From positions 35,604-99,603 of the forward strand of contig CALWEW010000001.1 of NCBI GenBank assembly GCA_944377415.1: DNA of 64,000 nt, given 5' to 3'. The notes below the pieces were generated by a model. It did no database searches. It saw only the letters and a list, made by a program, of their open reading frames with translations, and had not been told where the DNA came from. Shown piece by piece: positions 11,377-59,537 of this stretch (within the stretch, counting starts at the first letter, position 1; each line of letters starts with the position of its first letter). Origin of the DNA: an uncultured Clostridia bacterium. GTDB taxonomy: Bacteria > Bacillota > Clostridia > Christensenellales > UBA1242. The translations under genes were made by a program, and so were the position numbers.

Positions 11377-11389
11377 AAAAGAACCCCCA

Positions 11390-11414
11390 TATTTGACACG
11401 ATTTGTGTCAAATA
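11390..11414. promoter_or_regulatory. Perfect palindrome just upstream of the RBS of the giant gene (operator or hairpin)
   Basis: TATTTGACAC-gattt-GTGTCAAATA, 10-bp perfect arms, 14 nt from the start codon. Confidence 0.45.
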
Positions 11415-11510
11415 AATTAGCAGTTAGTAATTTTTTCTTTCCACACAATGTTGAAATGTGGAAAACTTTCGGGCAAATTCGGGCAACAACAAAGAAGTTT
11501 TAAAGAATTT

Positions 11511-11590
11511 TGCCTTGGAGTGCTCTATGAGCACGGAAAGCCAGCCGCATGTAACGACTATAGCAAGTAATATGCTCTCGGCTGCAAGAC
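11511..11590 (-). ncRNA. Putative structured 5' leader RNA of the giant gene (family unknown)
   Basis: GC-rich island in an AT-rich spacer with hairpins GTGCTC-ata-GAGCAC and CAGCCG...CGGCTG. I could not match it to a known riboswitch consensus. Confidence 0.3.
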
Positions 11591-11758
11591 AAATGAAATA
11601 ATGTAATAGTTATTAATGCTTGCTTGCGCATAACTTAATAACTAACTAATTTTTAGATATTTCAAAATTTCCTAGTATAAAGTACATTTAAACAGTATTG
11701 GTGGATGAAAATTTTGTCCTTAATTCAAAATTCAAAATTCCTAATTCAAAATTGCGCT

Positions 11759-28800: not shown

Positions 28801-31800
28801 TGCGCCTGTGGCAACATCTATATTATAAGTACCATTTAATGTAATGTCGCCACTATTTACTATGCCAACAACTGTTCCGCCAGACATAGTACCGATAAAG
28901 CCACCAGCCGAGAATGAATTTGCCGAAATATTGAGTAAATCAAAGGTCAAATTACTTGCGCTGTCAACTTGTGTTAAGTCTATCTCGTTGCCGAGCCCGA
29001 TAAATCCGCCCGCAACAGTGTTTTGCTGTACATTATTTAGTGTAATTTCAAAGTTGCTTGCCGCGCTGTTTACGACAACCGAAGTCGCACTACCGATGAA
29101 CCCACCCACATAGTGCGAGATTGTCGAAAGGTTTGCAAGGTTGTATTCCACATTCATGTTACCTTCGACAAACACTCGCGAAATGCTCGTGTTTTCGCCT
29201 GTTGCCTGCCCAGCAAAACCGCCGACATTTGCTGTCGTTTCACGCGCAGAGTAGACATTGTCAGTTGCATTTATATCAATAGAAATATATGCATCAGTTA
29301 CCGAAGTTACTCCGTTTGCATCAGAGTAAACGCGACCAAACATTCCGCCAACATTATTTGAATTTGTTGTAATTCCATGATACGAGCCTTCAAGAGAAGC
29401 ATCACTTGTAATGTTTACGCGGTCAACTGTCGTGTTGCGTGCCACACCTATTAACCCACCGACATAAGTGGTAAGGTCTTCGCTTAAATTAGTTGAGATA
29501 TAAAGGTTTACAATATTTACATTTCGAATAGTTGCCCCGTCAGTTGCACCGAATAGCCCTACATTCATAGCCCCCGAACGAACAATTGGCACATTATATA
29601 ATGTGTGTCCATTACCGTTGAACGAGCCTGTGAAAGGCGCACTTGTCGAGCCTACTGGCGCAAGCGCAGTCGACTCCGCCAAAAAGTCAAGGTCAGTATT
29701 TAAAATGTATTCTTTGTCGGGGTGCCAGTACATAATTTTGTAATCAGCCACCGAATTTATATAAATCGTGTCAGGCACATCTTGAATGTCAATATCAGGC
29801 ATTCCGCCACTAGTATCAATGCTATAACCGTCCCATTGTCCAAAGATTACATCAAGGTTATTAATCATATAACCGCGAGTTTCACCTTCGGCAATGTTGA
29901 TATTTGCTTCCGAATTACCAACAGCACGCAGATTTATTACATTCTCGCCCGTCTGTTCGTCAATTACAGAATTGAGTACAACACGATTGTAAATTTGATT
30001 TACATAGAAGTTAATTGAATTTAGAAGTTGTGAGTATGGCTCGTCAGGGTCGCCCGCCCCCGTTGTATGAGTCGTGTAAATTAGGCTCGGGTCAACACAA
30101 TAACCAACCAACCCACCTTGCGCACCAGCGCGAACTTGAGTTTCGGCTTGGCTAATTTCGTAGTAGTAGTTATAGTCGCTAGCAAGATAGTTATTGAGTG
30201 CGACCACATAATCAAGTGTAGTCATAGCAGATACATTTGTGCCGAACGGGTTCGAAATTTCGGTTAAATTACCGCCTGCCGAGAAGTCGTCGATATAACC
30301 AACAATTCCACCTAGGTTTGCAGTTCTGTTGCCGTAAATACTACCTGTCGAGAATACTGCTCGAATGTCGCCACCGTACGCAATTCCTACAATACCGCCG
30401 ACATTCGCACCATTTGAATTACGCACGCGAACTTTACTTGACGAATAGTAAATCGCACCGCTAGCCCAGCCATCGCTGGTGTAACCTATGTTAATACCCG
30501 CAATTCCACCCGTACCTAGCGTGCTTTGTCCGTTATCAAATAGAACATTATTAACGGTTATGCTTTCGCCGTCAAGGTTAAGTGTCGTATCTTCACCAGT
30601 ATTTGCAGCATCAACAGCCTCTTGTACATCATCGGTGTAAACAACATTACTATATCTTATTACACCGTTGTTCTGCCCAACAAGTCCGCCCGCAAAGGTT
30701 ATACCGCGAATTGTTGTTTCGGTGTCGACTACCTTTTCGGCATAATTTAGAACGGTATGCACGCCTAATACGCCGACAACACCACCTGCAATTTTACCAA
30801 CAATGCTTGCCTGCCCAGTGCTGTAAATATAGTTTAGAGCCGCTTCGTTTGCATTTGTAGTCGTGTTGACCGTGTCAAATTGAGTAAGGTCAGCAATACC
30901 AAACACACCACCAGCAAAGCCGAGCACGCCGATATTATTTGCGGCAGCGCTACTTCCCGAGGCAGCAAGCAAGTCTGCGTTATATAGTAAGTTCGTGTCT
31001 GCGCGGTAGTTTGAAGTAACACCGACTTCGCTTGTAATATTGCTAGCGCGCGAAGTCCCAGAAATCAAGCCCACCGCACCGCCGACAGCATTATTACCGA
31101 TTACGCGCGAGTTCTGCCCAGTAATGTTAATATTATAGATATTACCATTTTCGACTACACCAGCAAGCGCGCCGACATAAGCAACTTGCGAACATGAAAC
31201 CGCAGTAACCGAGATGTTTAAATTTTTGATAGTTCCTGTGTGAACAGTTCCATCACTTGTTGTTTCACTAGTAACCGTGCCGAGTAGTCCATATCTCGAA
31301 ACGCTCGCATCGTTCACCGCAAGATTGAGATTTTCAAATGTAAAGCCGTTACCTTCGAACACACCCGCGTATGTTGCAAGAGGACTGTTTAGCGTAGCAG
31401 TCGAGGAAATGTCGCTCTGGTCAATATTGCGAGCAAGACGAATATCATCAGTAATTACATACGAAGTATTCGCAAAAGCCGAATTAAACTGTGCCGCTGT
31501 CGTAATTGCAACAGGGTTAAAGGAATAGTCCGTGCCATAAATCGTGTTTGTCGTCTTTACAAAGTACGGAACAAACTGCTCGGTGTAAACATACCTTACA
31601 ACCCCAGTGTCCTCGTCAACAGTTGTGTTCTCTTCGTCAAGGTTCATTCTCGGTGTTGCAATCAAACTTGCAGACACGAGTTTAGGGCCTAGATTCATTT
31701 GGTTACGCGAATTTAGATTTGTTGTGAAGCGGTCAGGCGTAAAGTAAAGGTTATCTGGAGTTGTAAATGTCCACACGCCCGTAAATTCACTACCATCACT

Positions 31801-34800
31801 ACCCTCTCGCGAGAAGGTGTACCCTTCAAACATTGAGTAACCCGAGTTGCCTAAAAATTGTTCAAGAGTTAATTCAGTCGCATCTTCAAGGCGAAGTGCA
31901 TTAGTACTAAATCCAGTATTTAAGAAATAACAGTTCACAATTCCATCAGGGTTTGCGTTATTGTTTTCAGTAGAAGAAGTGCTTTCAACACCGATAAACG
32001 GCATAGAAAGGCTAGTTACTCCCGACTCGCCTGTGTCTGATAGAACGGATACAGAGTAACAACGCTCAATTTCTCCGTTCTCCGAATTTGAGTACACAAA
32101 ACCACTTGCTTCAATTGCCCAAATTCGCATTGCCGAATAAGAATCAGAAATCGAACCGTAGTTTGCGTATACAAAGCCTGCTGTTCTCACACCCGAAAGT
32201 ATGAGCGCATCGCGAGTATTTGCTAAACTTGAAACTTGCGTATTTTGTCCGCTTTTAGCATTGTATTCAGTGTATGCACCACCAGTAAACGAGCCGAAAA
32301 TCGTAGCGCCGTATGCATTTTCAACGACAAGTCCAGCAGTTGCAACATTGTTTGCTGTCGAAGTTGCAACATTCGTAATCGTGCCACCTGTGTAGTAACT
32401 TGATGCTATTACACCCGAGTTTGACGACACAAGTCCAGCAAGTCTGCCGAAGCCCGTCAAGTTTACATATTCGACACGACTATTTGAAATTGCACCGCTC
32501 TCACTGTTTGTACCTACAAGACCCGCAATATAGAACGATGCTGTCGTATCTGTTGGCGTAGGAACTGTTATTCCACGAACGGCATTATTAGTCCAACCAT
32601 TTACGACACAGTTGTAAACTGTACCATTATTTACACCAGCGATTGCACCAAAGTTAAGTGAAGTCGTGCTTGACACCGTTTCAGGAAGTGTTAGACCGTC
32701 AGTATTAAGTGAAACGGTTAAGTTTTTGATTACCATATTTTCGCTAATCGTGTCAAAAAGTCCATAATTCGAAGATGACGAATAAAGCGTGCGCGGTAGA
32801 TAAATTGTATATCCGTTACCATTTAGACTTGCAATTTCAGTCGTGAGCGCTGTCCAGTTGCTTGTAATCGAAATATCGTTCATAAGGATATAGTCGATAC
32901 CCGATTCCATATTGAGTAAATCGCGCTCGGTGTAGACAGGTTGCGCATGCTCTTGCGAAGTCATTTGATAAAATTCAATAGTAAGTTCCGCAGTCGAAAA
33001 ACCACGAGCATTATTATCAATTTCGTTACGAGTAATTAACTTAAATTCGCCGTTTTCATAAGTATAATACAAGTCGTATCTTATTCGCGATGATGACGAA
33101 ACGCCATTACCTTCTATACGGTATCCCGTGTACCCATCGCCTCCAACATCACAGTAGAATCGATAGTTTGAGTCGAGCCACTCGCCTTCGCTTCCTGTCG
33201 TAATAGGCGCAAGTTGCGACCAGCCATAACTGCCGTTGCTGTCAGGCAAATAACCGTACCAACCTAAATAACGCTGACTGCCGATACCGTTTAGAGTATT
33301 AATCACTTCTAAAATGTGTTCACGAAGAGTGCTATTTGTCGGGTCAAAAGTAATAGCCGAAATAGTGTCGAGATTTTCGAGTGTCGCACCGTCAAAAATT
33401 CTCAAATCATACAATGAATCGCGAATGTACGGATAGCGAAGATTTGTCGATTGTGATGCACCGTTTACAAGCCCGTCTTGAATACTGCTGATATAGAAGT
33501 CAACAACCAAAAAGTCAAGTGTGCGAGTAACAGTATTAATTAGCCCCGACATATTCTGTCGCCCCGACAGAGTAACAGTTATTTCCGTACCTACGGGGGC
33601 GGTGCCTGTGTATAGGTAATATCTTCCGTTTTCGCTGACTATTGCGACATTATAACTATTTGTTACATCGGTTCCGCTACTGTCACGAGCAACTACCGAA
33701 AGAGAGTAATCCATGTATGACGAGCCGACAACGACATTCAATTCATTTGCATTTTGCTCTAATGTAGTCGTTCCTATTCTGTAACCCGTACCCGCGGCAA
33801 CATATGCAGTGTTAGTATTTGAATTGTAATTATCATACGAAAGCGAAAGTGTATCTTGCGTGTAAACCGTCATCGTAAGGCTTTCGGTATAAGTAGTGTC
33901 GCCTTGATAAATTGTAACCGTAACGGTAAATTGCGCGCCTACTGGTTGCGCTGACGACACAAGCGTGCGCACATAATAATTTCCGTCAAAAGTACCGTCA
34001 TAATTTGATACGCGGTAAAGGCTGATACCGCCCTCAATAATTTCGACACCTGTCTGCCAACTGTAATATGTCGCGATATCGTTTTCGTAGCGCAAAATTC
34101 TCTGGTCAAACATTACGCGCTCATTATTTGTAACCGCACTTGTAATCTCAATGCGGTCGTAATATGCGTAATCTGGCGAAACACGAATTTGTAGCAAACC
34201 ATACTGTCCTGCAATCATCGTGTTAGTTGGTAGCCCACCTGCTTGTTCAAGTTTCGAACCATTATTTACCGCATCACTGTAATGCGACATATCAATATGA
34301 TTTATACGCTGAGGCAAGAAAGTAAATTCAAGAGTTACAGTCATCGAATACACAAAGTCGCCATTTGTATCAGTGTACCCTATCGGGTCGCCATTCTCAT
34401 CAAGTGCCCAGAATGTTATTGTGTAAGTAGTCGCAGTTTTTAATTCGTTGCGCGCAAGATTTGTCAAACTTACGCTAAACGGAATAGTTAATCTATTTTC
34501 GCTTGCTGTATATTCGAGTGTTCCAAACGACACGCGAATATCGTTACTTTCGATGTCGTCTTCCGTGTTAATAGCATCGCTATCAGCACCGTTTAGGCGT
34601 AGAGAGTAGCCGATGTGGTCAAGCACATTGTCGCCTTCTTCAAAGTTATCAGTAATCAAGGTTACCGAACTTGTAAGGCTATCTCCCGCATAAACGCTTG
34701 TGTCATTTGCAATGCCTAGTCCTATTGACGAAGCCCCTTTATAAACAACGGTGTTATATACGAGCGCGCATTCAGTATTATCAATATCAATGCGGTATAC

Positions 34801-37800
34801 ACTCGCCGCCCCCGTTGCTTTTCCATTCTCGTCTAGCGTATAGAACGAAGCATCAAAGAAAGGTGAAACCGAAACCGTAAGCGCAGGTGTCGCGTTTTTA
34901 GCAACAAAAGTAATTGAAGAATCGCCCATTAAATAGTAGTAATATTCACCATTTTCGCCTTCTGTCCATTCCGCAAGTCCTAGTGAAATTATGCTAGAAT
35001 CGTCAACACTAAATCTTAACCCACCGCTAACGTTTCCAGCCGAAACAGCACTACCCTCGCTCAAATACTCAACGAATGCTTGTGAGTTTTCGCCATTTTT
35101 AATACGAATTTCGCTCAAAGGGTCAGTATTTTCTATTATGTTTTCAGGCGACATATCGCTGCCTGAATAAAGATTATATTCTTCGAACCCATTAATTACC
35201 GCGATTTGCACGAAGTCGCGAGCCGTAGTATTTTGACTACTTGTAATTGAAAGAATTACCGTACCCGTGCCAACAATGCGTAGGCTTGTTGTGCTGAATG
35301 TAGTACCAGCAACTACTTGAATTACGCTAGTATTTGACACACTAAACGCAACGCGCACATTCGCGGGGTCGAGTTCAGGGTCGCTGGCAAAGTCGAATAA
35401 ATCACTAAGTCGAATATCCTGCCCACTATTTGAATAGAATAGAACTAATTTTTTAGTGTCAAGAGTGTTTGAGGTGTAGATATTCTGCACACCACTAATA
35501 TTATTACCACTCACGCGCTCAAATGTTTTAGCCGATAGCATAATGCTATTTGGCACAATTCGAATGAACGCTTCCCCGTTTCGTAATAGGTGCGGATAGC
35601 CGTCATTAATCACACTAGCCTGCGCCCAAACCGAAACACTAAATCCGTTTTGCGCGTAATAATTTAAATTCAAAGCATCTGCGCTTGTCTTGTCAAGATA
35701 AATGATATTTGCATCGCTACTTGAAAGCGAACTTTCAGGGGTTACAAGAATTATAATTTTTTGCGTGCTTGTAATCAAGTTGCCCGAGCCTACTGCGCTT
35801 AAATCATTTGCGAGTTCGGCATAGACGGCATTTACACCAGTGTTGTTGTCCGTGCTACCTACAATCGCGCCGACATTAGCAGTCGCACCTGTGTCGGTCG
35901 AGTTTGTCGAAACGAAGCCACGAGCATAGGCATCAGCAATATTCACAGTACCCGATGAATTTCCAAGCAGTCCGCCTACATTAAGCACTCCGCTTGTACT
36001 GTCGCCCGAAACTGTGCCTGAAATGCCAATATTTGCAAACGACCTAGAAATGTTTACCACTGCCGAAGTCTGCGCAAAACCAACAATTCCACCAAGGTTT
36101 AGCGTAGAATTTTCGGCATCAACACTGCCTAAAATGTTCGGGTTGCTCTCGTCAATATTGTACCCTTGCGCAATGGCGTATTGAATACTTCCGCCTGTCA
36201 TAAGTCCTACAATACCGCCAACATTTCCACTTCCCGAAATTCCGCAGTTCGTAGACGAAAGCGCGTATACTTCATAAGCAACATTATTTATTGTTCCGCT
36301 TGAAACGCCCGCAATTCCGCCGAGCGAACCATTTGCTCTTAATACAGCAGACGACATTGACGAAACTATGCTACCTGCATTTTCACCTGCAATTCCGCCG
36401 AGCGTATTATTCGAATAACCACTTAAATCAAGCGTACCATCAGTACTAATTCCATAAGCACTAGCGCTTGTGGCATTTACACCGATTGCACTTCCTAAAA
36501 TTGCCTTTGTAATCGTGCTATTTAGGTTCGTGTCGCGATTCGCAATAGACACATTTGCTACAACTGAATTTGTATAATTTTCTGTTGCAGACGAGCCAAT
36601 TAGTCCAGCATTTTCACCAGCCAGCCCACCAAAATGCACTGGCATATCGTCGCTAGAAAGTCGAGCGGAAATAGATACAGTCATGTTATCAACTGTCGTG
36701 TTTGCACCGACATAACCAACTGCACCTAGATTAAAGTGCAAGTAATTTAGATTTGTCGAAGTATTGTTATAGTTGTATGTTACATTCGAGCAAGACACTG
36801 TTACATGGTCAAGCACACCAGAACGCGTTATTCCGCCCGAAACGGTCGAACTTAACTCGCCGACCAGCAGTCCATAATTATACGAGTGCGCAACATTAGG
36901 GTTTTCGTTATCAAGGTCAAGACGCGCAGTCGTTTGAATTATCGTATACGAATTAATATAGAAATTTACATACCGAATTTCACCCGTAACTACACCAAAA
37001 ATTCCGTAATACATGGTGTGCGCGGGGTCATCGTTCGGGTTTGTTTGAGTTAAATCTTTTCTCAAAGTCCAGCCGATTATACTTAAAGCCGTTCCCCCGT
37101 TTTCATCACAGCCCATCGAAGTAATTGTACCACTAAAAGGCGTAGTGCGGTTGCCGATAGGAGTCCAGTCAGGGTTGCGCGCAAGGTAATTACTCATGTC
37201 AATCGTGTTCATTAAGTAGTAATTACTGCGCAAACCTAATTCGCTCGCGCCAATGTTTGCAACATCTTCGGCATCATAAAGCCTAAACGGCACAGATTGT
37301 CCGTCAGCAACAGTGATTAAAATTCTGCGCATACTCGATGAGTCAGACGGGTTCTGCATTTGCGAAGTAAGTTCGTAAATAGTTGTAATATCTTGCGCCA
37401 AAATGTCTTGCGGAATTATAAACATGAACGCATAACCTGCCCGACTAGGCACAACCGAATACAAATTGTGCGATGCATCATATTCAAGCGTTGCGGTATC
37501 ACATTCGTACTGCGACATGTCCGCCGAGCGCGTTTCTACACGGTAGTAATCGTAAACAGTGCGGTTATTTTCACGGCGCCCCGTATCAATTCGAATTATA
37601 TTATTGCCGAGCGACCCTGTATAGTCAGTGCCTAAATATTCGGCATCAAATAAAATATATTCAACATTTTTGTTTGTTGCGTTTGATGGTTCAATCGTCA
37701 AGTTCAAATCGAAACTAGAATTTTCGTACAATTCAAAGTACAAGCCGTCAGTATCGTTGTCGGGTATACCATCGATTAGAATATCAGTTACGCGCGTAAT

Positions 37801-40308
37801 TTTAGTAATTGTTACATGTACTGTTTGAGTAAACACGATTCCGTTAATATCAGTAACAGACACTATGACATCAACCGAGATATAATTATCTGTACTACTC
37901 AAAGGTTGGGCGGTTATATTTATGCTTGCGCCCGCCGTGCTCGACAGCGTAAGTCTTGTTGACGAAGCAGGGTTTTTTGTCCATGTCGCGCTACTTGCCT
38001 TTACTTCTGATTCAGACGGATAAACACTAACTTCAAGTGTTGTCGTGTTGCGTTGCGTATCGTAATAAGACTGGTTACCAGTAGTCGATGCAAGCAATTC
38101 TACATTTGACTGGTTAACCGAGATTCGACTAATCGGCACAAATACATGAATTGTAAAATCTCGAGTAACAGTCGCGCGCTCAACTAGCCCACCCGCGCCT
38201 ATGCGGTAGTACGCAACGGACATTGTAAAGGTTACATCACCGCGCGACATTGTCTGTAATAAAATGCTTGTATTTCCTTGCGCGCGTGCATACGCGATAT
38301 CCTCGGCATTTGATGTGATATCAATACTCAAAACCGATGACGAAGCATTACTCGGGAATAGCGTGTTATTTAGATGTACACTCTGTCCTTGCGCAATAAA
38401 CGCGTAATCGAGAGTTTCGACATCGCTCCCACCGACATTAATTGTCGTATATGCGTAAGGTCCCAAATTCGAGCCCGAAATGTCAGAGCCTAGCGAAATC
38501 GCAAAGTTATTAAATGCCGTTAGAACGCGAACTGTAACCGTGCGCACTGCCCCACTCGCTGATTCAAGCGTAATAGTTGCACTGCCTGCCGAAGCGGCGG
38601 TTAATATAAATCGTGTAGGCGATTGCGCCGATTTTTCAACAGTTACAATATTTGGATTGCTTGAACGCACCGAAACGGTATCCGCATTTGCAGTCGCAGG
38701 TGTTACGGTAAAGTCGACAGTTTTAGTCGAATAAGTCGACAATCCGTATTCGTCATATTCAAGCACAATGGCATTTAGTGTCGGGTCAACAAAAGCATCG
38801 CTAACAGTTATATCAGTTACACCCTGTTGCAAGTTAATCACAAGCCTGCGTGTCAGCGTATCACCAAAAAGTGCAGTATCTGTTGCTGTTACATCAAGCG
38901 TGATTGTTCCCGTTCCCCCACTGCTGCGGAAGTACAATGTGTCGCCAGCATGGAAAGTGTATTCACCATTAAAGATTTCACCGTTTATGCGTAAGTTTTG
39001 TATTAAGGCGGCATCGCTTTCATTTAGTACGACATTAAGGCTCATGTTGTTGTAGACATTACTGTATGGAGTTGTTCCAAAAACGACTTGCGCCCCCGAA
39101 GTTGCACCGCTCTCACGGTAGCGGTCGAATACATCAAGGTAATATATGTCAGTTGTGCTGTCGCCATTTATAATAATCGCAGTTGGCACATCAACGATAC
39201 GAATATCAAGCGGAAGCACCATTTCGCGAGCATCACTCACGCCTGCAACTTTGACAACGATTTCAAGGCGTGTCCATTCGTCAAGCGATTCAAGACCTGT
39301 TATTGTGATTTGATTTGTATTTGCATTTACTTCTGCATAAATGTAATTGTCAATCAAGCCATTAGGGTCGCGAATTTCAACAGTTACACTCTCATAATTC
39401 GGCACCGCCACATTTACACGCGCGGTATTTGATGACGAGTTTTTCACAAGTTCGAGAGAAGTAATCACATTCGCAACCGAACCAGAATAAAGATATGTAT
39501 TTTCTGCTGTGAGTGCAGTATATACGCGCACATCTTCCATCACGACAGTAAGCGCAGCGAGTTCTTCATCTGTATAATTTTGAATATCGCGCGGGTATGC
39601 CGTAATATCTACCGCACTGCCAACTGAAGTATCAAGAATAAAAGGTTCTTTAGAGTTGTATAATTCCCCGTTGATATTGAATACATAATCAGGTACTGTC
39701 GCATTTGCGGGAGTAAAATCAAAAAGCGTGCGCGGGTCAAGAATGTATTCCTGCCCTGCTGGTATTCCAAAACTCGTCATATCAGCAGAGAGTGTCGCGC
39801 CCGTCGGCTTCACAATTACTTCGACAATCAGTGTCGCTGCAACTTCATTCGTTTCGATACTAAACGCAGTTACTCGCGCCTCCGTTGTCGCAGAAAGCCC
39901 TGTGATAATTACTTCGGTACCTGCGGAATTTTGCAAATCAATGCGCAGCAAAGTATCATTATAATTCCACACAACATCACCGAGCAAATCGCCAGACAGC
40001 CCTGTAACTTCGGCGGTTACAAGAGCTGAATCCGAGCCAAGAGGCGCTTCTGCATTCGGGGCGTTCGGGTCGGTGGCTTGCTCATCATCAGCGTTGCCAT
40101 CGATTGTGAGTGTTAGATAATATGTACCGTCAACTTCGGTTACACTTTCTCCCGAAAGGGTAATGCGCAAGTTATCAAGCGGATTACCACACCCCGCGAG
40201 TATTCCCAGTGTCGCAAGCAATATTGCCAACACGCCAAAAAACATTGCGCCTATACGCGCGCGCGTGCTAGTTTTGTTTTCATTCAAAAAAGTTTTGTGT
40301 ACTCCCAT
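25855..40308 (-). CDS. 4817-aa giant surface lipoprotein with Big_2/Ig-like domains and multiple GLUG/Zmp-N-terminal-like modules
   Basis: Lipobox LGILAGC-GN. Big_2-like segments (VDFTVTPATANADTVSVRSSNPNIVTV; LTIEPSNATNKNVEY). About 7 modules of type P-x-x-I...L...Y-x-L-x-x-DID...F-x-G-x-F-x-GNG-x-T(I/L). Many VGGLxG/GGIAG GLUG motifs. No HExxH found. Confidence 0.92.
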   Translation of the reverse strand: MGVHKTFLNENKTSTRARIGAMFFGVLAILLATLGILAGCGNPLDNLRITLSGESVTEVDGTYYLTLTIDGNADDEQATDPNAPNAEAPLGSDSALVTAEVTGLSGDLLGDVVWNYNDTLLRIDLQNSAGTEVIITGLSATTEARVTAFSIETNEVAATLIVEVIVKPTGATLSADMTSFGIPAGQEYILDPRTLFDFTPANATVPDYVFNINGELYNSKEPFILDTSVGSAVDITAYPRDIQNYTDEELAALTVVMEDVRVYTALTAENTYLYSGSVANVITSLELVKNSSSNTARVNVAVPNYESVTVEIRDPNGLIDNYIYAEVNANTNQITITGLESLDEWTRLEIVVKVAGVSDAREMVLPLDIRIVDVPTAIIINGDSTTDIYYLDVFDRYRESGATSGAQVVFGTTPYSNVYNNMSLNVVLNESDAALIQNLRINGEIFNGEYTFHAGDTLYFRSSGGTGTITLDVTATDTALFGDTLTRRLVINLQQGVTDITVSDAFVDPTLNAIVLEYDEYGLSTYSTKTVDFTVTPATANADTVSVRSSNPNIVTVEKSAQSPTRFILTAASAGSATITLESASGAVRTVTVRVLTAFNNFAISLGSDISGSNLGPYAYTTINVGGSDVETLDYAFIAQGQSVHLNNTLFPSNASSSVLSIDITSNAEDIAYARAQGNTSILLQTMSRGDVTFTMSVAYYRIGAGGLVERATVTRDFTIHVFVPISRISVNQSNVELLASTTGNQSYYDTQRNTTTLEVSVYPSESEVKASSATWTKNPASSTRLTLSSTAGASINITAQPLSSTDNYISVDVIVSVTDINGIVFTQTVHVTITKITRVTDILIDGIPDNDTDGLYFELYENSSFDLNLTIEPSNATNKNVEYILFDAEYLGTDYTGSLGNNIIRIDTGRRENNRTVYDYYRVETRSADMSQYECDTATLEYDASHNLYSVVPSRAGYAFMFIIPQDILAQDITTIYELTSQMQNPSDSSSMRRILITVADGQSVPFRLYDAEDVANIGASELGLRSNYYLMNTIDMSNYLARNPDWTPIGNRTTPFSGTITSMGCDENGGTALSIIGWTLRKDLTQTNPNDDPAHTMYYGIFGVVTGEIRYVNFYINSYTIIQTTARLDLDNENPNVAHSYNYGLLVGELSSTVSGGITRSGVLDHVTVSCSNVTYNYNNTSTNLNYLHFNLGAVGYVGANTTVDNMTVSISARLSSDDMPVHFGGLAGENAGLIGSSATENYTNSVVANVSIANRDTNLNSTITKAILGSAIGVNATSASAYGISTDGTLDLSGYSNNTLGGIAGENAGSIVSSMSSAVLRANGSLGGIAGVSSGTINNVAYEVYALSSTNCGISGSGNVGGIVGLMTGGSIQYAIAQGYNIDESNPNILGSVDAENSTLNLGGIVGFAQTSAVVNISRSFANIGISGTVSGDSTSGVLNVGGLLGNSSGTVNIADAYARGFVSTNSTDTGATANVGAIVGSTDNNTGVNAVYAELANDLSAVGSGNLITSTQKIIILVTPESSLSSSDANIIYLDKTSADALNLNYYAQNGFSVSVWAQASVINDGYPHLLRNGEAFIRIVPNSIMLSAKTFERVSGNNISGVQNIYTSNTLDTKKLVLFYSNSGQDIRLSDLFDFASDPELDPANVRVAFSVSNTSVIQVVAGTTFSTTSLRIVGTGTVILSITSSQNTTARDFVQIAVINGFEEYNLYSGSDMSPENIIENTDPLSEIRIKNGENSQAFVEYLSEGSAVSAGNVSGGLRFSVDDSSIISLGLAEWTEGENGEYYYYLMGDSSITFVAKNATPALTVSVSPFFDASFYTLDENGKATGAASVYRIDIDNTECALVYNTVVYKGASSIGLGIANDTSVYAGDSLTSSVTLITDNFEEGDNVLDHIGYSLRLNGADSDAINTEDDIESNDIRVSFGTLEYTASENRLTIPFSVSLTNLARNELKTATTYTITFWALDENGDPIGYTDTNGDFVYSMTVTLEFTFLPQRINHIDMSHYSDAVNNGSKLEQAGGLPTNTMIAGQYGLLQIRVSPDYAYYDRIEITSAVTNNERVMFDQRILRYENDIATYYSWQTGVEIIEGGISLYRVSNYDGTFDGNYYVRTLVSSAQPVGAQFTVTVTIYQGDTTYTESLTMTVYTQDTLSLSYDNYNSNTNTAYVAAGTGYRIGTTTLEQNANELNVVVGSSYMDYSLSVVARDSSGTDVTNSYNVAIVSENGRYYLYTGTAPVGTEITVTLSGRQNMSGLINTVTRTLDFLVVDFYISSIQDGLVNGASQSTNLRYPYIRDSLYDLRIFDGATLENLDTISAITFDPTNSTLREHILEVINTLNGIGSQRYLGWYGYLPDSNGSYGWSQLAPITTGSEGEWLDSNYRFYCDVGGDGYTGYRIEGNGVSSSSRIRYDLYYTYENGEFKLITRNEIDNNARGFSTAELTIEFYQMTSQEHAQPVYTERDLLNMESGIDYILMNDISITSNWTALTTEIASLNGNGYTIYLPRTLYSSSSNYGLFDTISENMVIKNLTVSLNTDGLTLPETVSSTTSLNFGAIAGVNNGTVYNCVVNGWTNNAVRGITVPTPTDTTASFYIAGLVGTNSESGAISNSRVEYVNLTGFGRLAGLVSSNSGVIASSYYTGGTITNVATSTANNVATAGLVVENAYGATIFGSFTGGAYTEYNAKSGQNTQVSSLANTRDALILSGVRTAGFVYANYGSISDSYSAMRIWAIEASGFVYSNSENGEIERCYSVSVLSDTGESGVTSLSMPFIGVESTSSTENNNANPDGIVNCYFLNTGFSTNALRLEDATELTLEQFLGNSGYSMFEGYTFSREGSDGSEFTGVWTFTTPDNLYFTPDRFTTNLNSRNQMNLGPKLVSASLIATPRMNLDEENTTVDEDTGVVRYVYTEQFVPYFVKTTNTIYGTDYSFNPVAITTAAQFNSAFANTSYVITDDIRLARNIDQSDISSTATLNSPLATYAGVFEGNGFTFENLNLAVNDASVSRYGLLGTVTSETTSDGTVHTGTIKNLNISVTAVSCSQVAYVGALAGVVENGNIYNINITGQNSRVIGNNAVGGAVGLISGTSRASNITSEVGVTSNYRADTNLLYNADLLAASGSSAAANNIGVLGFAGGVFGIADLTQFDTVNTTTNANEAALNYIYSTGQASIVGKIAGGVVGVLGVHTVLNYAEKVVDTETTIRGITFAGGLVGQNNGVIRYSNVVYTDDVQEAVDAANTGEDTTLNLDGESITVNNVLFDNGQSTLGTGGIAGINIGYTSDGWASGAIYYSSSKVRVRNSNGANVGGIVGIAYGGDIRAVFSTGSIYGNRTANLGGIVGYIDDFSAGGNLTEISNPFGTNVSAMTTLDYVVALNNYLASDYNYYYEISQAETQVRAGAQGGLVGYCVDPSLIYTTHTTGAGDPDEPYSQLLNSINFYVNQIYNRVVLNSVIDEQTGENVINLRAVGNSEANINIAEGETRGYMINNLDVIFGQWDGYSIDTSGGMPDIDIQDVPDTIYINSVADYKIMYWHPDKEYILNTDLDFLAESTALAPVGSTSAPFTGSFNGNGHTLYNVPIVRSGAMNVGLFGATDGATIRNVNIVNLYISTNLSEDLTTYVGGLIGVARNTTVDRVNITSDASLEGSYHGITTNSNNVGGMFGRVYSDANGVTSVTDAYISIDINATDNVYSARETTANVGGFAGQATGENTSISRVFVEGNMNVEYNLANLSTISHYVGGFIGSATSVVVNSAASNFEITLNNVQQNTVAGGFIGLGNEIDLTQVDSASNLTFDLLNISANSFSAGGFIGTMSGGTVVGIVNSGDITLNGTYNIDVATGAHALGGIAGTISGGTMQTGYSIASIFNNTRFTNIDLSVYSGTLGYTSVYCDTYLGLTARDSNNVGTTSVNIISRTYDGLVRPTGSTYAYARLDTAEWSSFSAAPTRYAALYSQKVVTGDTKRAPITISSYSDFYSLIDTSGENYLYYLQTTSLTTPVDLDLNRTLYGWYNAGGNTINAVYQTLEYDGFTPATNTNYGLFATLGDVEVSGETRGSILSGAVINVNVSTKIGDGSTFGAAVGNLTSNAKVFGVYVTGKIDLGVESGSVNIGGIAGINSGQIIGSAVNADMRIYGAVDLDGNSLGTGGAVNAGALVGWSNNVDTRLTLIDSYAVGSILNYNSAQNVYISGFVGRVADESGNSLGFYNENCYTAVVLRDYTGSAVVNSVVANRNGGATNANGVYYDTSMTLSNNEYFTAFSISAQRGADTSQKLALGSAFTTDNAYNYGLPYLSWLDDVSALSSTGNGTASSPYVINSAGQLLWALENGNSYYILNNDIDFSLISSGYTARAFAGNLDGNTFSIDNISTTLFTDVSGDISSLKLNGATASVILADTISGSATLVMTDATTGAVVNSGNIENALSNGATFGANAVNCYTNYPTDLSVLDSDIWAFTGRTVDGTNAYELREFVEVVGTNTPFGVSVSNVGGVYLIDTVDQLSRVIEYSRMAGGTYNVTVNGDILDLEHKALETLNNIVLDCDTITNGLIIRTGSGDFTTSLSNNNVSGVENVGMVLGSTSVFGSTSQKFDDGTTLTINNAVISVSSNSALVIGAFEQAKTINVNITNVTVITPDGVTPVGITNTIAGASTVNVTISGMTADAFSSLVGTNSGTLSLNITNLNAAINGALVVTNNGTLTVNGTYTNSANLNNSGLIAHTNSASGIINIGTLNITGAGDNSGGIVYINDGSITGGTLNATLTGTSIGFIANTNNGTISNITITGTINGVASDVVAVAGSGTIENVTTPTVEPEPEPEPEPEPEPEPEPTP
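25864..25917 (-). repeat. (Glu-Pro)9 tandem repeat at the extreme C-terminus
   Basis: Encodes VEPEPEPEPEPEPEPEPEPTP*. Confidence 0.95.
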
Positions 40309-53968: not shown

Positions 53969-54012
53969 TGGTGTTCCCGGCGGGAATCGAACCCACATTT
54001 GTCACTTAGGAG
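53969..54012 (-). repeat. att core duplication (3' 44 nt of tRNA-Arg, anticodon loop to CCA)
   Basis: TGGTGTTCCCGGCGGGAATCGAACCCACATTTGTCACTTAGGAG, identical to 59463-59506. Confidence 0.96.
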
Positions 54013-54215
54013 AACTCACTCTACCTGAGGGGCTTGAACAAACTTTGTATTATCTTACATTTTGTTTAATAGTTTTTGTGTGTCGACTGGTTGTTTTTGC
54101 GATTGTTTTCAATAACTTTTGTATCTTGCAATAATTTTCATAAAAAACTATTGATAAATTATTGATAAAATAGTATTTGTCCTTTTAAAAATTAAAATAA
54201 AAAGGAGCAAAAGTT

Positions 54216-54686
54216 ATGAATAATCAACAAATCAAAACTACACAAGAAATGAAACTACCACACGAGCAAGCAAGGGACTTGTTTATGTCGATACAAAAAC
54301 AAAGCGGAGCAGCAATAAAACCTATTGGAGTGTTTCAATTCTTTTATAACTATATCACAACTATTTCAAAAAGTAAAATGAATAGAGTAAAAGCAAGAAA
54401 TATTGCCGATGTCTATTGTGTACTGCAAAATGAATTCTTTATTACAAATGGTAGTAAGAAACCACACGAATGGTTTTATATGACACAATCTCGCTGGGAT
54501 AAATATGGACTTGGTCGAAAGGCAATTCAAAATAGTGTAAAATTTTTAAGTGAGAATATGTTTATTGAAACCACTGTAAGAACACACCCCTACATTCCAC
54601 AAAATAAACTTAGATGGTATAAACTGGATTTGGAATGGCTCAAATATATTGCAGATTATACTGAAAATAACAACCCTAAAAATTAG
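54216..54686 (+). CDS. Putative winged-helix replication initiator (phage/plasmid Rep N-terminal-like), possibly truncated
   Basis: WFYMTQSRW..YGLGRKAIQNSVKFL...FIET...P..K.RWYKLD resembles phage replication-initiator wHTH domains; AAGGAG RBS. Confidence 0.5.
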   Translation: MNNQQIKTTQEMKLPHEQARDLFMSIQKQSGAAIKPIGVFQFFYNYITTISKSKMNRVKARNIADVYCVLQNEFFITNGSKKPHEWFYMTQSRWDKYGLGRKAIQNSVKFLSENMFIETTVRTHPYIPQNKLRWYKLDLEWLKYIADYTENNNPKN

Positions 54687-54999
54687 TGTTAGCAACAAGG
54701 AGCAAGAAACTAAATTAGAGACTAGTTATTATTTGCACGCTACTTGTAGACACCTAGCATACAAAAGATTGTTATATGCATCTTGTAAAAAACAAGGTGC
54801 ATAAAGAAAGAGAAATAAGAGAAGTAATTACTTGCAAGCCTCTTGTTGAAAACAAGGGGCTTCTATACTTTATCTATATGTTGTCTATACTAGTTAGAAC
54901 TACAGATTTACTCGTTGCTACCCCATTGCAACCACAAAATATAAAGTTTTAATATACTCATCTACTAGTATATGCTACTACAGTTGAACTACAGATTTA
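54684..54999. repeat. Iteron-like repeats (putative origin)
   Basis: 20-mers TCTTGTAAAAAACAAGGTGC (54781) and TCTTGTTGAAAACAAGGGGC (54841), a degenerate copy at 54684, and a 14-bp direct repeat GAACTACAGATTTA at 54897 and 54986. Confidence 0.5.
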
Positions 55000-55080
55000 G
55001 TCAAGTAAAACATTTGTTCTATAGGTTTGACTTTAAATTAAAAATATGGTATATTATAAAAATAAAGGAGATAGGACAGA

Positions 55081-55461
55081 ATGACAACAAATGAAGTAAA
55101 CAACAACTTAAAGGAAGTTTTAAAGCAAATAGATAAAAAAGATAAGGAGCAATTTAGAAAAGACTTACAGGCAATAAATAAAAAAGCTGACAAATTGGAT
55201 TCTATTTTTAAAAATATTTCCGATTGGTTTGGTTTATTTTTTTCAATTGGAATTGATAATAAAATTACTAAAATTATTAATGATATAGCTGAAAATATTG
55301 AAAATCCTAAGCTTGATAGTTCGATTAAAGAAGAGATAGAAAATCTAATTTCAAAGTTTTTAGATAAAGGGACACCAGAAACTAAAAATTTAAATCTTTC
55401 AAATACAAATCAAGGAAAAAATTTATGGGAAGAGACAAAAAAAGTGAGAAAAGCCCTGTAA
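55081..55461 (+). CDS. Hypothetical coiled-coil-like protein, 126 aa (element cargo)
   Basis: AAGGAG RBS, TTGACT/TATATT promoter candidate upstream. Confidence 0.7.
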   Translation: MTTNEVNNNLKEVLKQIDKKDKEQFRKDLQAINKKADKLDSIFKNISDWFGLFFSIGIDNKITKIINDIAENIENPKLDSSIKEEIENLISKFLDKGTPETKNLNLSNTNQGKNLWEETKKVRKAL

Positions 55462-55960
55462 GAAAAACTTTCAATAAAAAGACAATAATTGTATTTAAAG
55501 TTATAGCAGTCATTTTAGCTCCAATAATTTATGAACTACTAGTTTTTGGAATAAGTAAACTAAGTCTCGGCACAGCCTGGGAAGAAATGATGAATTTAAA
55601 TTTAACCCCAAGCACTATGTGGCAATTTTTAAGTACAAACTTTTGGACATATTTTTCATTAGTTTTATGTAGAATTATTATTTATACATTGCCCGCAATC
55701 CTATTTTTTCCTTTTACTTTTATTAAGAGAGACAAAAGAAAAAGCATATTCAAAACTTTTTAAAATGCTTAAATTTACAATTCTTAGGATATTTAATTTA
55801 TCAAGGTTTAGCAGTTATATTTGCCCTTGATTATTTGATTGGGCTTGAGCCATTTTCAAACATAGCAATTTTTATGTCAATGTTTGGTTATATTGCAACC
55901 GTATCAAGAAATAAAAATAACGATGTAGAATTTGGCAAAATTAATGATAACGAATTTTAA
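55425..55960 (+). pseudogene. Frameshifted multi-TM membrane protein (element cargo)
   Basis: The ORF 55425-55763 continues in another frame from 55727 (ERQKKKHIQNFLKCLNLQFLGYLIYQGLAVIFALDYLIGLEPFSNIAIFMSMFGYIATVSRNK...*, stop 55958-55960); one added base at ATTAAGAGAG restores it. Confidence 0.65.
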
Positions 55961-56008
55961 ACATTGTAAGGGTTTTCTACAATGTTTATTTTTTAATTGC
56001 AAGATTTC

Positions 56009-56038
56009 TTGACTTTTTAAATATAAAAGTGCTATCAT
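56009..56038 (+). promoter_or_regulatory. Sigma-A promoter driving the structured leader and GIY-YIG gene
   Basis: TTGACT-18 bp-TATCAT with extended -10 TG. Confidence 0.65.
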
Positions 56039-56041
56039 AAA

Positions 56042-56190
56042 GTTGCGACACAATTGAATAATTTATACCCAAAGAGTGAAAGATTTTTTTGCTATTCATA
56101 CAAATTCTTCCACACCCTTTGGGTTCAATTGTGTCGCAACAATTGGAAGGTTTGTTCTTGGATAGACTGTGCCTTCCGTTTGGGAGGCAC
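56042..56190 (+). ncRNA. Structured leader RNA upstream of the GIY-YIG nuclease
   Basis: Perfect 17-bp inverted repeat (56042-56058 / 56124-56140), inner ACCCAAAG/CTTTGGGT, then hairpin GTGCCTTCC-gttt-GGGAGGCAC that hides the SD. Confidence 0.55.
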
Positions 56191-56199
56191 TTTTATTTT

Positions 56200-56856
56200 A
56201 TGGATAAGAAAGGTTTTGTTTATATTTTAACCAACCCTTGTTTCAAAGAAAATTGGGTAAAGATTGGGCAAACAGACAATTTAGATAGAAGAATTTGGGA
56301 ACTTTCACAAGCAACAGGAATACCTTTGCCCTTTGAAATGTATGCAGTATTAAAAACTACTAAATATAAACAAGCTGAACATATGATACATAGACTTATT
56401 GGTAAACTTGCACCAGACAAACGCATCAACCCCAAAAGAGAATTTTTTAATATTGAGCCAGAAGATGCGGTTTCAATTATGAAAGATATTGCAAGTCTTA
56501 TTGATGACGCTGAAATTATTTACAATGAAAAAATAACTACTGAAATAACAACAGAAAAACAACACGGAAAGAAAGCTCCACGAAAAACTTTTTATAGTAT
56601 GGGTATCAAAAATGGAGATATTATAGAATTCACTCTTGACCCACAATACAAAGCAACAGTATGCGGAGAAAGAACAGTAATGTTTGAGAACAAAGAATAC
56701 TTTTTAACACCTCTTGGTATTTTACTATTACAAAGAGTTGGGCACAGCGAAGAACAAGCAAGACAACTTGGAAGCGGTTTTGGAGTTTTCAAATTTGATA
56801 GCCAAGACAACAACCTTTATGATCGTTGGGAAAGGCTAAACGGAAACAAATATTAA
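56200..56856 (+). CDS. GIY-YIG family nuclease (T5orf172-like) with an extra C-terminal domain, 218 aa
   Basis: Start MDKKGFVYILTNP at 56200; WVKIGQT, RRIWEL..ATGIPLPFE, AEHMIH, KREFF. Confidence 0.85.
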   Translation: MDKKGFVYILTNPCFKENWVKIGQTDNLDRRIWELSQATGIPLPFEMYAVLKTTKYKQAEHMIHRLIGKLAPDKRINPKREFFNIEPEDAVSIMKDIASLIDDAEIIYNEKITTEITTEKQHGKKAPRKTFYSMGIKNGDIIEFTLDPQYKATVCGERTVMFENKEYFLTPLGILLLQRVGHSEEQARQLGSGFGVFKFDSQDNNLYDRWERLNGNKY

Positions 56857-57050
56857 GCAATTTATCGCTTGCCCTCGTTGCTTTATCGTTGCTCACTCAA
56901 TTTGTATCAACTCAATAAAACATACCACAAAAATAAAAAGACACCGCCAAGCAAAGATTTGAGAAAGCAAAAAAAGTTTAGTTCGTAAGGCTTTACAACA
57001 CAAAAATGCTTTTTTATAATAATCAAAATTTATTAAAAGGAGAAAAAATT

Positions 57051-57266
57051 ATGAAATGGATAAAATGGCTTAATCTTGCTCAAACAATTTTACTAGTTAT
57101 TGTTGGCATTTTACTTGCTAATTTTAAAACTATCACAGAAGCGGGAATGATAGTATTTGAAATTTTCGTTATACTATCACTTGTTTTGTCAATCGTAATG
57201 TTAGTTATGCACTTTAAGAAAAACAAAAAGCAAAAGCAAGAAGAAAAAAAGAACGAAGAAAAGTAA
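57051..57266 (+). CDS. Small 2-TM membrane protein with Lys/Glu-rich tail, 71 aa
   Basis: AAAGGAG RBS before the ATG at 57051; two hydrophobic helices, then HFKKNKKQKQEEKKNEEK. Confidence 0.7.
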   Translation: MKWIKWLNLAQTILLVIVGILLANFKTITEAGMIVFEIFVILSLVLSIVMLVMHFKKNKKQKQEEKKNEEK

Positions 57267-57671
57267 AAAGTTTTGATTTTCTAGGTCGCTGCACTTTACT
57301 TTGAAAAATGCTTATACTACAATATTGCTATGAAACAAGCAATTCCACCAAAGATAGATTTTTTAATAAAAATGCCGAAAGACACTCTCAAAAAGGGTGT
57401 CTTTTTTAGTTTTTTCAAAAAAAATTCAACTTTTTTAAAAAAATTTTATCAAAATGCCCATTTTAGGACTGCAAATCGCTATAATATATATAGGAGGGTT
57501 TTTCAAAAAACCACCCAACTAAAGATTTTTAGCAAACGCAAAGCCAACAGGCAGCAACTGCTTTTATATATAAATAATTTAAAATCGATTGCTTTTCGCT
57601 ATCTTTTTCTTTCGTGCGTGAGTGCAACCACAAAGAAGCCCAAATTAAATTTAAAAGGAGGGTTTCTTTTT

Positions 57672-57938
57672 ATGCGTTCATTTATAGATTCAACCATAAG
57701 GAAACAATACAAAACACAAAACTGTGATACTCAAAAGATAAGAGAAAACTCTGCAAGATATAGAACAATCAATGCCACTGTAAAAGAATTAAAGGAGATA
57801 GACCCAAACACTTGCATATCTACCTATTTTATTCGCTGTCTTTGCAATTCTAAAAAAGTTCTTTCTCTAACTGCTGGAAACAAAGTTTTAGTCAATTTTG
57901 ATGACCTTCTAAACTATTTACAAAAAGGAGAAGGATAA
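57672..57938 (+). CDS. Excisionase/Xis-like DNA-binding protein, 88 aa
   Basis: AAGGAGG RBS before the ATG at 57672; RTINATVKELKEIDPNTCISTYFIRCLCNSKKVLSLTAGNKVLVNFDDLLNYL; ends 1 nt before the integrase start. Confidence 0.7.
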   Translation: MRSFIDSTIRKQYKTQNCDTQKIRENSARYRTINATVKELKEIDPNTCISTYFIRCLCNSKKVLSLTAGNKVLVNFDDLLNYLQKGEG

Positions 57939-57939
57939 T

Positions 57940-59352
57940 ATGGCAAGTATACCTAAAAAACCAAGAATTAAAAAAGATGGGACAGAAGTTTATGACATTC
58001 AAGTTTATGTTAAGGATTCAAAGCAAAAGATATTTTACAAAACATATACTCGTGAGCAAGGCATAACCGAAAACGAGAATAGAAGAAGATTAAATGCTTT
58101 TGCAGTAAACTTTGAAAACGAAGTGCGAAACAAAATTGCAGAACAAAAACAAGCATTTCTTCGCAATAAACAAGAAATAACTTTTAAAGAATTCTCTTTA
58201 AAATGGTTAAGAAGAAGCGAACAAAAGGACTCAAAAACATCAGTTGTAAGAAACACAAAAATTGTGGAAGATTTAAATGCTTTAATAGGAAATCTTAAAA
58301 TGAAAGAAATTCAGCCACTCGATATTCAAGAAATTTTAGACTATCTAAACAGCAAGAAAATCATAAAAGAAACAGCAGTTTTAAGGAAATCAATTGATGA
58401 AATAATAAAACATACAAATGTTGATAAACTTTGCAGAGAAAATGATTTTAGCACTTGCACAATTTTCTATGCAAAGAAAGGACAAACTATTCAATGGATA
58501 AATGCAGTTAAAATTTGTAATGCTTTAAAACTCAATGTAAACGAATACTTTATAAAGAAAGTAGAAGAAAAACCATATTCTAAAGGCAGTAAGTTAGTTT
58601 ATCGCAAAGTTTTAAACGCAATTTTCAACTTTGCAATAGAAACAGATTTGATAGATAAAAACCCTTGTAAGTTTGTTTTAAAACCAAACAATCTAAGTGG
58701 CGAGATAAAAGAGAAAGATATCTTATCACTTGAAGAAACAAAACAATTACAAAACACTTTAAAATCAATGAATAATGTTGAAGATTTAAAAAAGAAAACA
58801 GTGGTGGCAATGTTTTTAGCACTAGGTCTAAGACAAGGTGAACTTGTTGGTCTTCAATGGAAAGATATAAATTGGGATACGAAAAAGATTACAATCAACA
58901 GAAGTTCAACCTATACTGGCTCAAAATATGGCATAGTCACCAAAACACCTAAAACAAAAACATCTATCAGAACGCTCCCTATTCCACAAAGTTTAATGGA
59001 AATCATACTAGAATACAAAAATTGGTATGATAACGAACACAACAGATTTTATGAAATATGGGATAATGAAAATGAATGAGTGTTTGTAAAAACAACAGGG
59101 CAACAAATATTTCCACGCACAACAACTGGGTGGCTTGACTATGTTTTAAATAAAGGTGGTATTAGACATATTGGTTGTCATTCATTAAGACATACCTTTA
59201 TTACAACATTACTAAGAAAAAAAGTGCCAGTCAAAGTTGTGGCAAAATTTGCTGGACACGCAAACCCAAATGTGACTTTATCAACTTATGCACATTTCTT
59301 AGACGAAGATAATGACGAGGCTTCACAAGTTATGGACGAATTTTTGAAATAA
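57940..59352 (+). pseudogene. Tyrosine integrase interrupted by one in-frame TGA (59077-59079)
   Basis: R in LGLRQGEL and K in KTPKTK lie before the stop; HSLRH, GHA and TYAH lie after it in the same frame. 470 aa if read through. Confidence 0.9.
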
Positions 59353-59433
59353 CCATACAAAAAACATACTTTTTAGGTATGTAATCTTTTTATGGCAAGT
59401 TTAGAAAAAGGAGAAAAATATGTATTATTATAG

Positions 59434-59458
59434 AAAAAGACCACCTTAAATGGTGGTC
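59434..59458 (-). terminator. Terminator downstream of tRNA-Arg (inside the element)
   Basis: GACCACC-ttaaat-GGTGGTC with an A-run on the plus strand. Confidence 0.7.
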
Positions 59459-59462
59459 AGTT

Positions 59463-59537
59463 TGGTGTTCCCGGCGGGAATCGAACCCACATTTGTCACT
59501 TAGGAGGCGACTGTTCTATCCTTTGAACTACGAGAAC
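59463..59537 (-). tRNA. tRNA-Arg (CCT), integration target
   Basis: GTTCTCGTAGTTCAAAGGATAGAACAGTCGCCTCCTAAGTGACAAATGTGGGTTCGATTCCCGCCGGGAACACCA; 75 nt, A20 present. Confidence 0.96.

Follow-up and report, generated by a model that had tools for sequence, protein, structure and literature searches.

A hairpin leader before a GIY-YIG nuclease gene as a probable transcription attenuator of an RNA family absent from Rfam

Regulation by a chain of RNA segments with alternative pairing partners is known from the PyrR-dependent pyr operon of Bacillus subtilis and from the trp/his-type attenuators, where segments pair 1:2, 2:3, 3:4 or 4:5 and a choice made upstream sets the terminator. The leader described here, which lies between a promoter and a putative nuclease gene on an integrated island in an uncultured Clostridia bacterium, is alike in this respect. 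However, it differs from the trp/his-type attenuators in having no conserved leader peptide, and from PyrR leaders in having no PyrR site at threshold (19 bits, with the gathering score set at 54). Moreover, the sensor in this case is a hairpin of ~100 nt predicted to start at about +1, and is found on phages and islands before unrelated accessory genes. Transcriptional riboswitches provide a second parallel, in that a conserved promoter-proximal domain is followed by a competing antiterminator and terminator, and in that multiple copies precede varied genes; by contrast, conservation in the leader is highest in a long Watson-Crick helix, not in a junction or pocket, and the leader has no match in Rfam.

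Two further parallels come from mobile elements. The type III system ToxIN consists of a promoter, a structured RNA, a terminator and a nuclease, and, as with the abiF-associated RNA, the structured RNA and terminator stand before a possibly harmful defence gene. Unlike these systems, the leader has no tandem RNA repeats and no Rfam match, and leader and nuclease are separable. The lambda PR'-6S RNA-tR' region, where Q acts in antitermination, and the HK022 put RNAs share the order of phage promoter, short structured RNA, terminator and protein genes. The leader differs from both in possessing a built-in antiterminator that covaries with the terminator; no Q-like or other protein is common to its contexts, and single, variable cargo genes lie downstream.

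The leader represents a new subtype within an RNA family for which Rfam has no entry, and it would work like known multi-helix attenuators. The reading that it is a cis-acting transcription attenuator belonging to a large family is assigned a probability of roughly 0.7, and the four competing explanations weighed below all rank lower.

Promoter, sensor hairpin and terminator of the leader

The window (the whole stretch of 64,000 nucleotides that was analysed) carries the leader and its gene on the plus strand. A sigma-70-type promoter spans 56009-56038, with the -35 element TTGACT at 56009-56014, an 18-nt spacer, and the extended -10 element TGcTATCAT at 56030-56038. With a score of 10/12 plus the TG extension, it ranks near the top of the promoter-like sites over the 5.7 kb scanned, and the extended -10 is kept in 10 homologous loci and in all family members with upstream sequence inspected. 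The distance from the -10 element to the start of the hairpin is four bases. The sensor hairpin itself (56042-56140, ~100 nt) consists of P1, a perfect 17-bp helix of 56042-56058 with 56124-56140 and with the core UGCGACACAAUU; a 5' A/U-rich internal loop, or hinge loop, at 56059-56066; P2, formed by 56067-56074 with 56117-56124 and paired in all variants despite differing sequence; and an apical part at 56075-56116. The 171-nt leader folds at -63.5 kcal/mol, compared with -34.1 +/- 3.9 kcal/mol for 200 dinucleotide shuffles (z = -7.45), with none of the 200 as good.

The hairpin is followed by a linker (56141-56168), in which a conserved ACAAU is joined to the purine box GGAAGG (56145-56150), and by an intrinsic terminator (56169-56199). 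The terminator has a 9-bp stem of GTGCCTTCC with GGGAGGCAC (56169-56177 with 56182-56190) closed by the loop GTTT, and a U-tract at 56191-56199, such that the stem is followed by TTTTATTTT and then directly by the ATG at 56200, with 0 nt between the U-tract and the start codon. The Shine-Dalgarno sequence (SD) GGGAGG at 56182-56187 thus lies inside the 3' arm of the terminator and pairs with CCTTCC at 56172-56177. A preliminary description of this DNA had proposed that this stem sequesters the SD, which is borne out; it had not remarked that the same stem is an intrinsic terminator, and the top terminator-like site in the 5.7 kb scanned. The coordinates that it gave all hold, and its placing of a nuclease gene behind the leader stands; the start codon lies at 56200 and not at 56202.

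The purine box GGAAGG (56145-56150) can also pair with CCTTCC (56172-56177), and an RNA ending at 56181 folds in this way. The preliminary description had postulated this alternative pairing and two mutually exclusive folds; both are confirmed, and the alternative is an antiterminator that covaries across relatives. The terminator state is calculated at -56.7 kcal/mol and the forced antiterminator state at -51.8 kcal/mol. In addition, a third complementarity exists in the window between UGGAAGGUUUGU at 56144-56155 in the linker and ACAAAUUCUUCCA at 56100-56112, the 3' strand of the apical part (-12.1 kcal/mol), making the latter a candidate anti-antiterminator partner.

These pairings suggest a sequence of events. 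Transcription would start within a few nucleotides of UGCGACAC, from a promoter that looks constitutive, and the first ~100 nt would fold into the long hairpin of P1, hinge loop, P2 and apical hairpin. The linker (ACAAU, GGAAGG and UUUGUU) could then pair with the next segment, GUGCCUUCC, to form the antiterminator; alternatively, GUGCCUUCC could pair with GGGAGGCAC to form the terminator, in which case RNA polymerase would stop in the U-tract just before the ATG. The state of the sensor hairpin would decide whether the linker is available, and pairing of the linker with the apical 3' strand could keep it from the antiterminator, giving a logic of anti-antiterminator, antiterminator and terminator. 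Because the SD is inside the terminator 3' arm, the terminator choice would also hide or free the ribosome-binding site, and in the window subtype a single choice may thus set read-through and the accessibility of the SD in the read-through mRNA. The point at which transcription starts, the actual occurrence of termination and the default state are, for their part, predicted from the DNA sequence.

Two other accounts of the region can be rejected. The leader is present as a single copy in its own genome of 1.26 Mb, and a repeat element is ruled out. A leader peptide is likewise ruled out, the in-frame upstream TTG ORFs being unconserved (L187 has a stop, and L008 lacks the start).

Relatives of the leader in bacterial and phage genomes

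Comparison of the regions upstream of T5orf172 homologues, as advocated in the preliminary description, reveals a conserved structure in the form of 13 distinct leader variants, which stand before homologues of about 60-99% identity and have compensatory changes in P2 and the terminator. The L113 nuclease (about 60-63% identity) is preceded by a leader of equal architecture and quite different sequence. Other homologues have no leader. Upstream of those in L112, L114, L115, L116 and L196 there is just a short region of the usual kind, and in the case of the L195 T5orf172 gene only GGAGGGCACTTTT (960-996), the 3' half of the terminator, is left behind a different promoter adjoining a tRNA; these leaderless homologues are of 53-67% identity, and the nuclease can therefore be maintained without the leader RNA. 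Among more distant nuclease homologues, a leader is found upstream in none of ~170 loci. As far as can be told from these loci, the leader travels with one nuclease clade and not with the nuclease family as a whole. The L195 contig also carries an RNA of the family at 573-713 on the minus strand (111.7 bits), directed away from the T5orf172 gene and towards a 191-aa gene, and the arrangement resembles a scar left within the switch by recombination.

The leader is not confined to nuclease genes. A pattern search with the two P1 halves (GCGACACAMTT, 55-85 nt, ATTGTGTCGC) matches 18 IMG/VR viral contigs, all of which have the extended -10 promoter, the hairpin, an (A/G)CAAU linker, the purine box and the terminator, followed by differing genes. 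Of 399 species sampled from the window's class, 82 carry the family according to covariance model R1; these belong to 50 of the 217 genera covered, and a genome may have up to five copies. A 301-genome sample of the phylum gives matches only in the window's genome and in two others of the same class. A further 29 genomic units were inspected, and each has its own promoter, most with an SD and start codon within about 15-50 nt. The family promoter is of sigma-70 type with an extended -10 ending about 5-7 nt ahead of the RNA. Sequence conservation is strong in the P1 core and in the linker, and the P1 halves are spaced from 55 to over 100 nt apart.

The window leader shares most of these features. 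Its promoter is of the family type, its P1 (56044-56058 with 56124-56138) fits the family core UGCGACACAA / UUGUGUCGCA, its AUA-containing hinge loop is AAUAAUUUAU, and it has the (A/G)CAAU linker with purine box, an antiterminator formed with the terminator 5' arm, and the U-tract terminator. The family-type apical hairpin, with a loop of the UUGGUAAAAG type followed by GUGUUUUCUC, is replaced by UUUUUUUGCUAUUCAUACAAAUUCUUCC, an apical subtype that is shared with L197, L216 and L224. Rfam 15 contains no family for the window leader or for the phage-type copies at the gathering threshold and E <= 10; the best sub-threshold scores of 13-24 bits are noise, with abiF, T-box and riboswitch classes all below gathering. 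Searches of GenBank phages (INPHARED) by blastn in distant mode with both leader subtypes gave no match, and no paper was found in the literature on the leader RNA, on the P1 sequence, or on a moron combined with an attenuator.

The genes behind the leader are diverse. Phage copies precede a DUF6591 lipoprotein, a PASTA-domain membrane protein or an uncharacterised family of 340-380 aa, and on the phage contig L197 a leader of the window subtype stands before a 129-aa membrane protein. Genomic copies precede small acidic proteins, Cys-rich miniproteins, zinc-ribbon or Sel1 membrane proteins, and DUF4230. Two small-protein families recur as cargo, one of 35-70 aa whose members start in the manner of M-x-x-YKKLY (L231, L235, L236, L248 and L249) and one of 77-83 aa beginning MNIKLELL (L239, L243 and L245), neither with a Pfam match in the representatives scanned. 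PADLOC returned one weak match among seven other cargo proteins and otherwise nothing. In the flanks that were sampled, loci of the island and phage types have no protein family in common, and a host factor or metabolite is therefore mildly favoured as the input of the switch.

In phages, the variable gene is followed on its 3' side by a conserved block that includes a 908-aa protein matching phrog_4291. This conserved protein, of 900-908 aa, is located ~2 kb downstream in L201, L203, L204, L207, L212, L213 and L215 (in the last at 11501-14227); it matches phrog_4291 ('RNA-dependent RNA polymerase') with E = 0, has a C-terminal HTH, and is presumably a YonO-like single-subunit RNA polymerase. 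On the L197 contig, an Rfam RT-18 RNA (6223-6300, minus strand, 57.9 bits) adjoins a reverse transcriptase and a tail-fibre gene, a locus that looks like a diversity-generating retroelement.

About one in five of the sampled species of the class, together with their phages, thus carry a cassette of promoter and switch before poorly understood accessory genes. Once its input is found, the switch would bear on the timing of lysogenic-conversion, exclusion and defence genes in gut phages and islands, and would offer a compact and portable regulatory part. The window provides a clean test case, in that the switch runs directly into the ATG of a putative defence nuclease gene whose ribosome-binding site is inside the terminator, and natural controls exist in the nuclease gene without leader and the leader with other genes.

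Covariation of the helices and competing explanations

In 27 CM-aligned sequences, P1 and the terminator are 99.7% paired, and changes on both sides are found in 16 of 22 pairs, compared with 4.5 +/- 1.3 in shuffles, the slid controls being 37-61% paired; CM alignments are fitted to the structure of the model, and such counts lean towards it. Nine of the 13 P1 pairs have changed on both sides in this set, related sequences not being independent events. The terminator is 100% paired, with both-side changes in 3/9 pairs, and in 7/9 in the wider set of 27. For the antiterminator, the columns of a MAFFT alignment of 22 sequences are 86% paired with three pairs changed on both sides (L216, with GGAAAG/CUUUCC, provides one such change), and none of 500 shuffles is as good. 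Individual loci give further instances of compensation, for example in P2, where an A-U pair in L187 is G-C in L192 and where the window, L007 and L111 all differ, and in the terminator, where GUGCC/GGCAC becomes GAGCC/GGCUC in L111.

Fixed-column covariation failed for P2 and for the antiterminators of divergent members because MAFFT registers shift, and folding sequence by sequence and energy tests of cognate against non-cognate strands were therefore used. When 3' parts are ended before the terminator 3' arm, 18 of 18 representatives fold an antiterminator that uses the terminator 5' arm. When linkers and terminator arms are swapped among 15 types, the cognate partner has a mean rank of 2.6/15, with 0 of 20,000 permutations as good, although 7 of the 15 cognate pairs are outside rank 1 or 2, the purine and pyrimidine boxes being of low complexity and pairing promiscuously. 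Judged by these comparisons, the hairpin, terminator and antiterminator helices are kept beyond chance in relatives, with changes on both sides. The switch postulated in the preliminary description is accordingly supported, in that terminator and antiterminator exclude each other and both covary, with the SD in the terminator 3' arm.

The third complementarity is also found elsewhere in the family, reaching 14 bp between linker and apical 3' strand in divergent members, and cognate pairs have a mean rank of 2.7/15 among the 15 family types (0/20,000 permutations as good). It suggests an anti-antiterminator, and thus an attenuator with three states. In a nested fold, the state in which the linker pairs with the apical strand is 15 kcal/mol worse than the hairpin, and on this model its formation would need either a fold-back at the hinge loop (a pseudoknot) or an outside factor on the 5' strand. 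Alternatively, the complementarity could have arisen if the antiterminator were a paralogue of the apical hairpin, for instance as two sites for one protein.

The leader could instead be a stand-alone small RNA, a promoter-to-terminator transcript of ~150 nt that acts in trans and beyond which genes are carried as cargo and expressed by leak-through. Every unit with inspected flanks does have its own promoter and terminator, two or three units stand in tandem in L240 (1266-1897), L218 (1248-1648) and L220 (1501-1871), each with promoter and terminator and with upstream copies that have no gene of their own, and the strong sequence conservation of the P1 core and linker would suit an RNA of this kind. 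Yet a plain small-RNA terminator has no need of an antiterminator that covaries with its arm. Moreover, with the gap of 0 nt between U-tract and ATG and the SD in the terminator, the nuclease gene would be expressible only through the leader, and most of the 29 genomic units likewise have an SD and start codon ~15-50 nt on. A small RNA acting in trans is, on balance, unlikely, although it fares best among the alternatives.

The high conservation of P1 could also reflect a function in DNA. In this case TGCGACACAATT, where transcription would start, and an inverted copy of it ~80 bp further on would serve as operators for a looping repressor, the RNA folds being secondary. The P1 core is far more conserved in sequence than P2, and in divergent members a change in one half is matched in the other, a pattern that co-evolving half-sites would give as well; the first half also overlaps with the probable site of initiation. 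However, only selection on RNA explains why G-U pairs and compensatory changes preserve pairing in P2 and the apical hairpin as well as in antiterminator and terminator, and the variable spacing of the P1 halves, from 55 to over 100 nt, together with the lack of a DNA-binding protein common to the contexts, makes the operator explanation improbable.

Control of the pT181 type follows a countertranscript logic of five segments, and a small antisense RNA on the 5' strand of the leader could in principle force the terminator, since removal of this strand would leave the apical 3' strand available for pairing with the linker. On the minus strand, a single promoter-like site (56222-56195) is directed into the leader; it is weak, at 9/12, and consists of the complement of the U-tract. 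Neither the window nor the members inspected have a minus-strand T-run after the hairpin, which renders an antisense RNA very improbable. Least credible of all is a type III-like antitoxin or addiction module specific to the T5orf172 nuclease, an antitoxin being one of the two roles that the preliminary description had proposed for the RNA. In such a module the nuclease would be neutralised by the leader RNA, and the terminator would fix how much antitoxin is made per toxin. The order of promoter, structured RNA, terminator and putative nuclease is indeed that of ToxIN, and the module is carried by a mobile island. However, the leader family also precedes unrelated non-nuclease genes, close homologues lack it (L112, L114-L116, L195 and L196), no tandem repeats are present at 55800-56200, no toxin-associated Rfam motif (abiF included) is matched, and the GIY-YIG fold would suggest a nuclease acting on DNA, whereas a type III toxin is an endoribonuclease that binds and cuts its own antitoxin RNA.

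The putative nuclease and its island

The gene behind the leader (56200-56856, plus strand) encodes a protein of 218 aa that matches Pfam T5orf172 with E = 2.5e-14. It consists of an N-terminal nuclease domain (residues ~5-108), a disordered linker (111-124) and a C-terminal beta/alpha domain (~130-218), and the AF2 (AlphaFold) model has two domains and a pLDDT of 82.6. The catalytic Tyr, Arg, Glu and Asn correspond to Y8, R31, E81 and N84, none of which varies among 33 homologues. The best fold matches of the N-terminal domain are to Slx1 GIY-YIG nucleases, with a probability of 0.99-1.0 but with E >= 6.6e-3, and a match to HIGLE is likewise weak by E-value. No clear fold match is obtained for the C-terminal domain, and a sequence search of the PDB with the nuclease family returned nothing.

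An anti-phage function for the nuclease is suggested by a full-length match to the PADLOC entry PDC-S57 (E = 2.3e-51), PDC denoting a candidate defence system only. No paper naming PDC-S57 was found in the literature, and we know of no experimental defence phenotype for it. ICP1 Odn and PLE CapR are reportedly T5orf172/GIY-YIG proteins of mobile elements, and the nuclease is like them in its domain and in its carriage on a small integrative element. It is possible, if rather doubtful, that the family as a whole represents a new class of riboregulator through which the flexible genome of gut Clostridia responds to signals, the hairpin reading a metabolite, a second messenger of the host or a factor linked to infection; on the island, a double lock of transcription and translation would then free a defence nuclease only on signal, as an RNA-gated immune effector.

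The leader and nuclease are carried by an integrated island of 5.5 kb (53969-59506). Its two ends are copies of a 44-nt sequence in direct repeat without mismatch, 53969-54012 being identical to 59463-59506. The repeat is the 3' half of a tRNA-Arg(cct) at 59463-59537 on the minus strand. The tyrosine integrase of the island (57940-59352, plus strand) is interrupted by an in-frame TGA at 59077-59079, a position at which the intact 470-aa orthologues of L005 and L007 have W. A TGA-recoding genome is ruled out, as the giant ORFs already read through without stops in table 11, and the integrase is alone in gaining from table 4. The TGA is therefore a nonsense mutation, and the island is probably immobilised in this genome. 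A search of four island proteins against NCBIfam found nothing. Islands with the leader also share a protein of ~150 aa (54216-54686 in the window), which is conserved upstream of the leaders in L111, L113, L190, L192 and L194 and has no Pfam, NCBIfam, PHROG or PADLOC match; the islands that carry it have either a tyrosine integrase or a serine recombinase.

Elsewhere in the window, three giant ORFs are present on the minus strand at 1-11448, 11759-19300 and 25855-40308, encoding proteins of more than 3816, 2513 and 4817 aa, respectively. ARAGORN places a tRNA-Pro at 48508-48584 with the anticodon AGG, which is unusual for bacteria.
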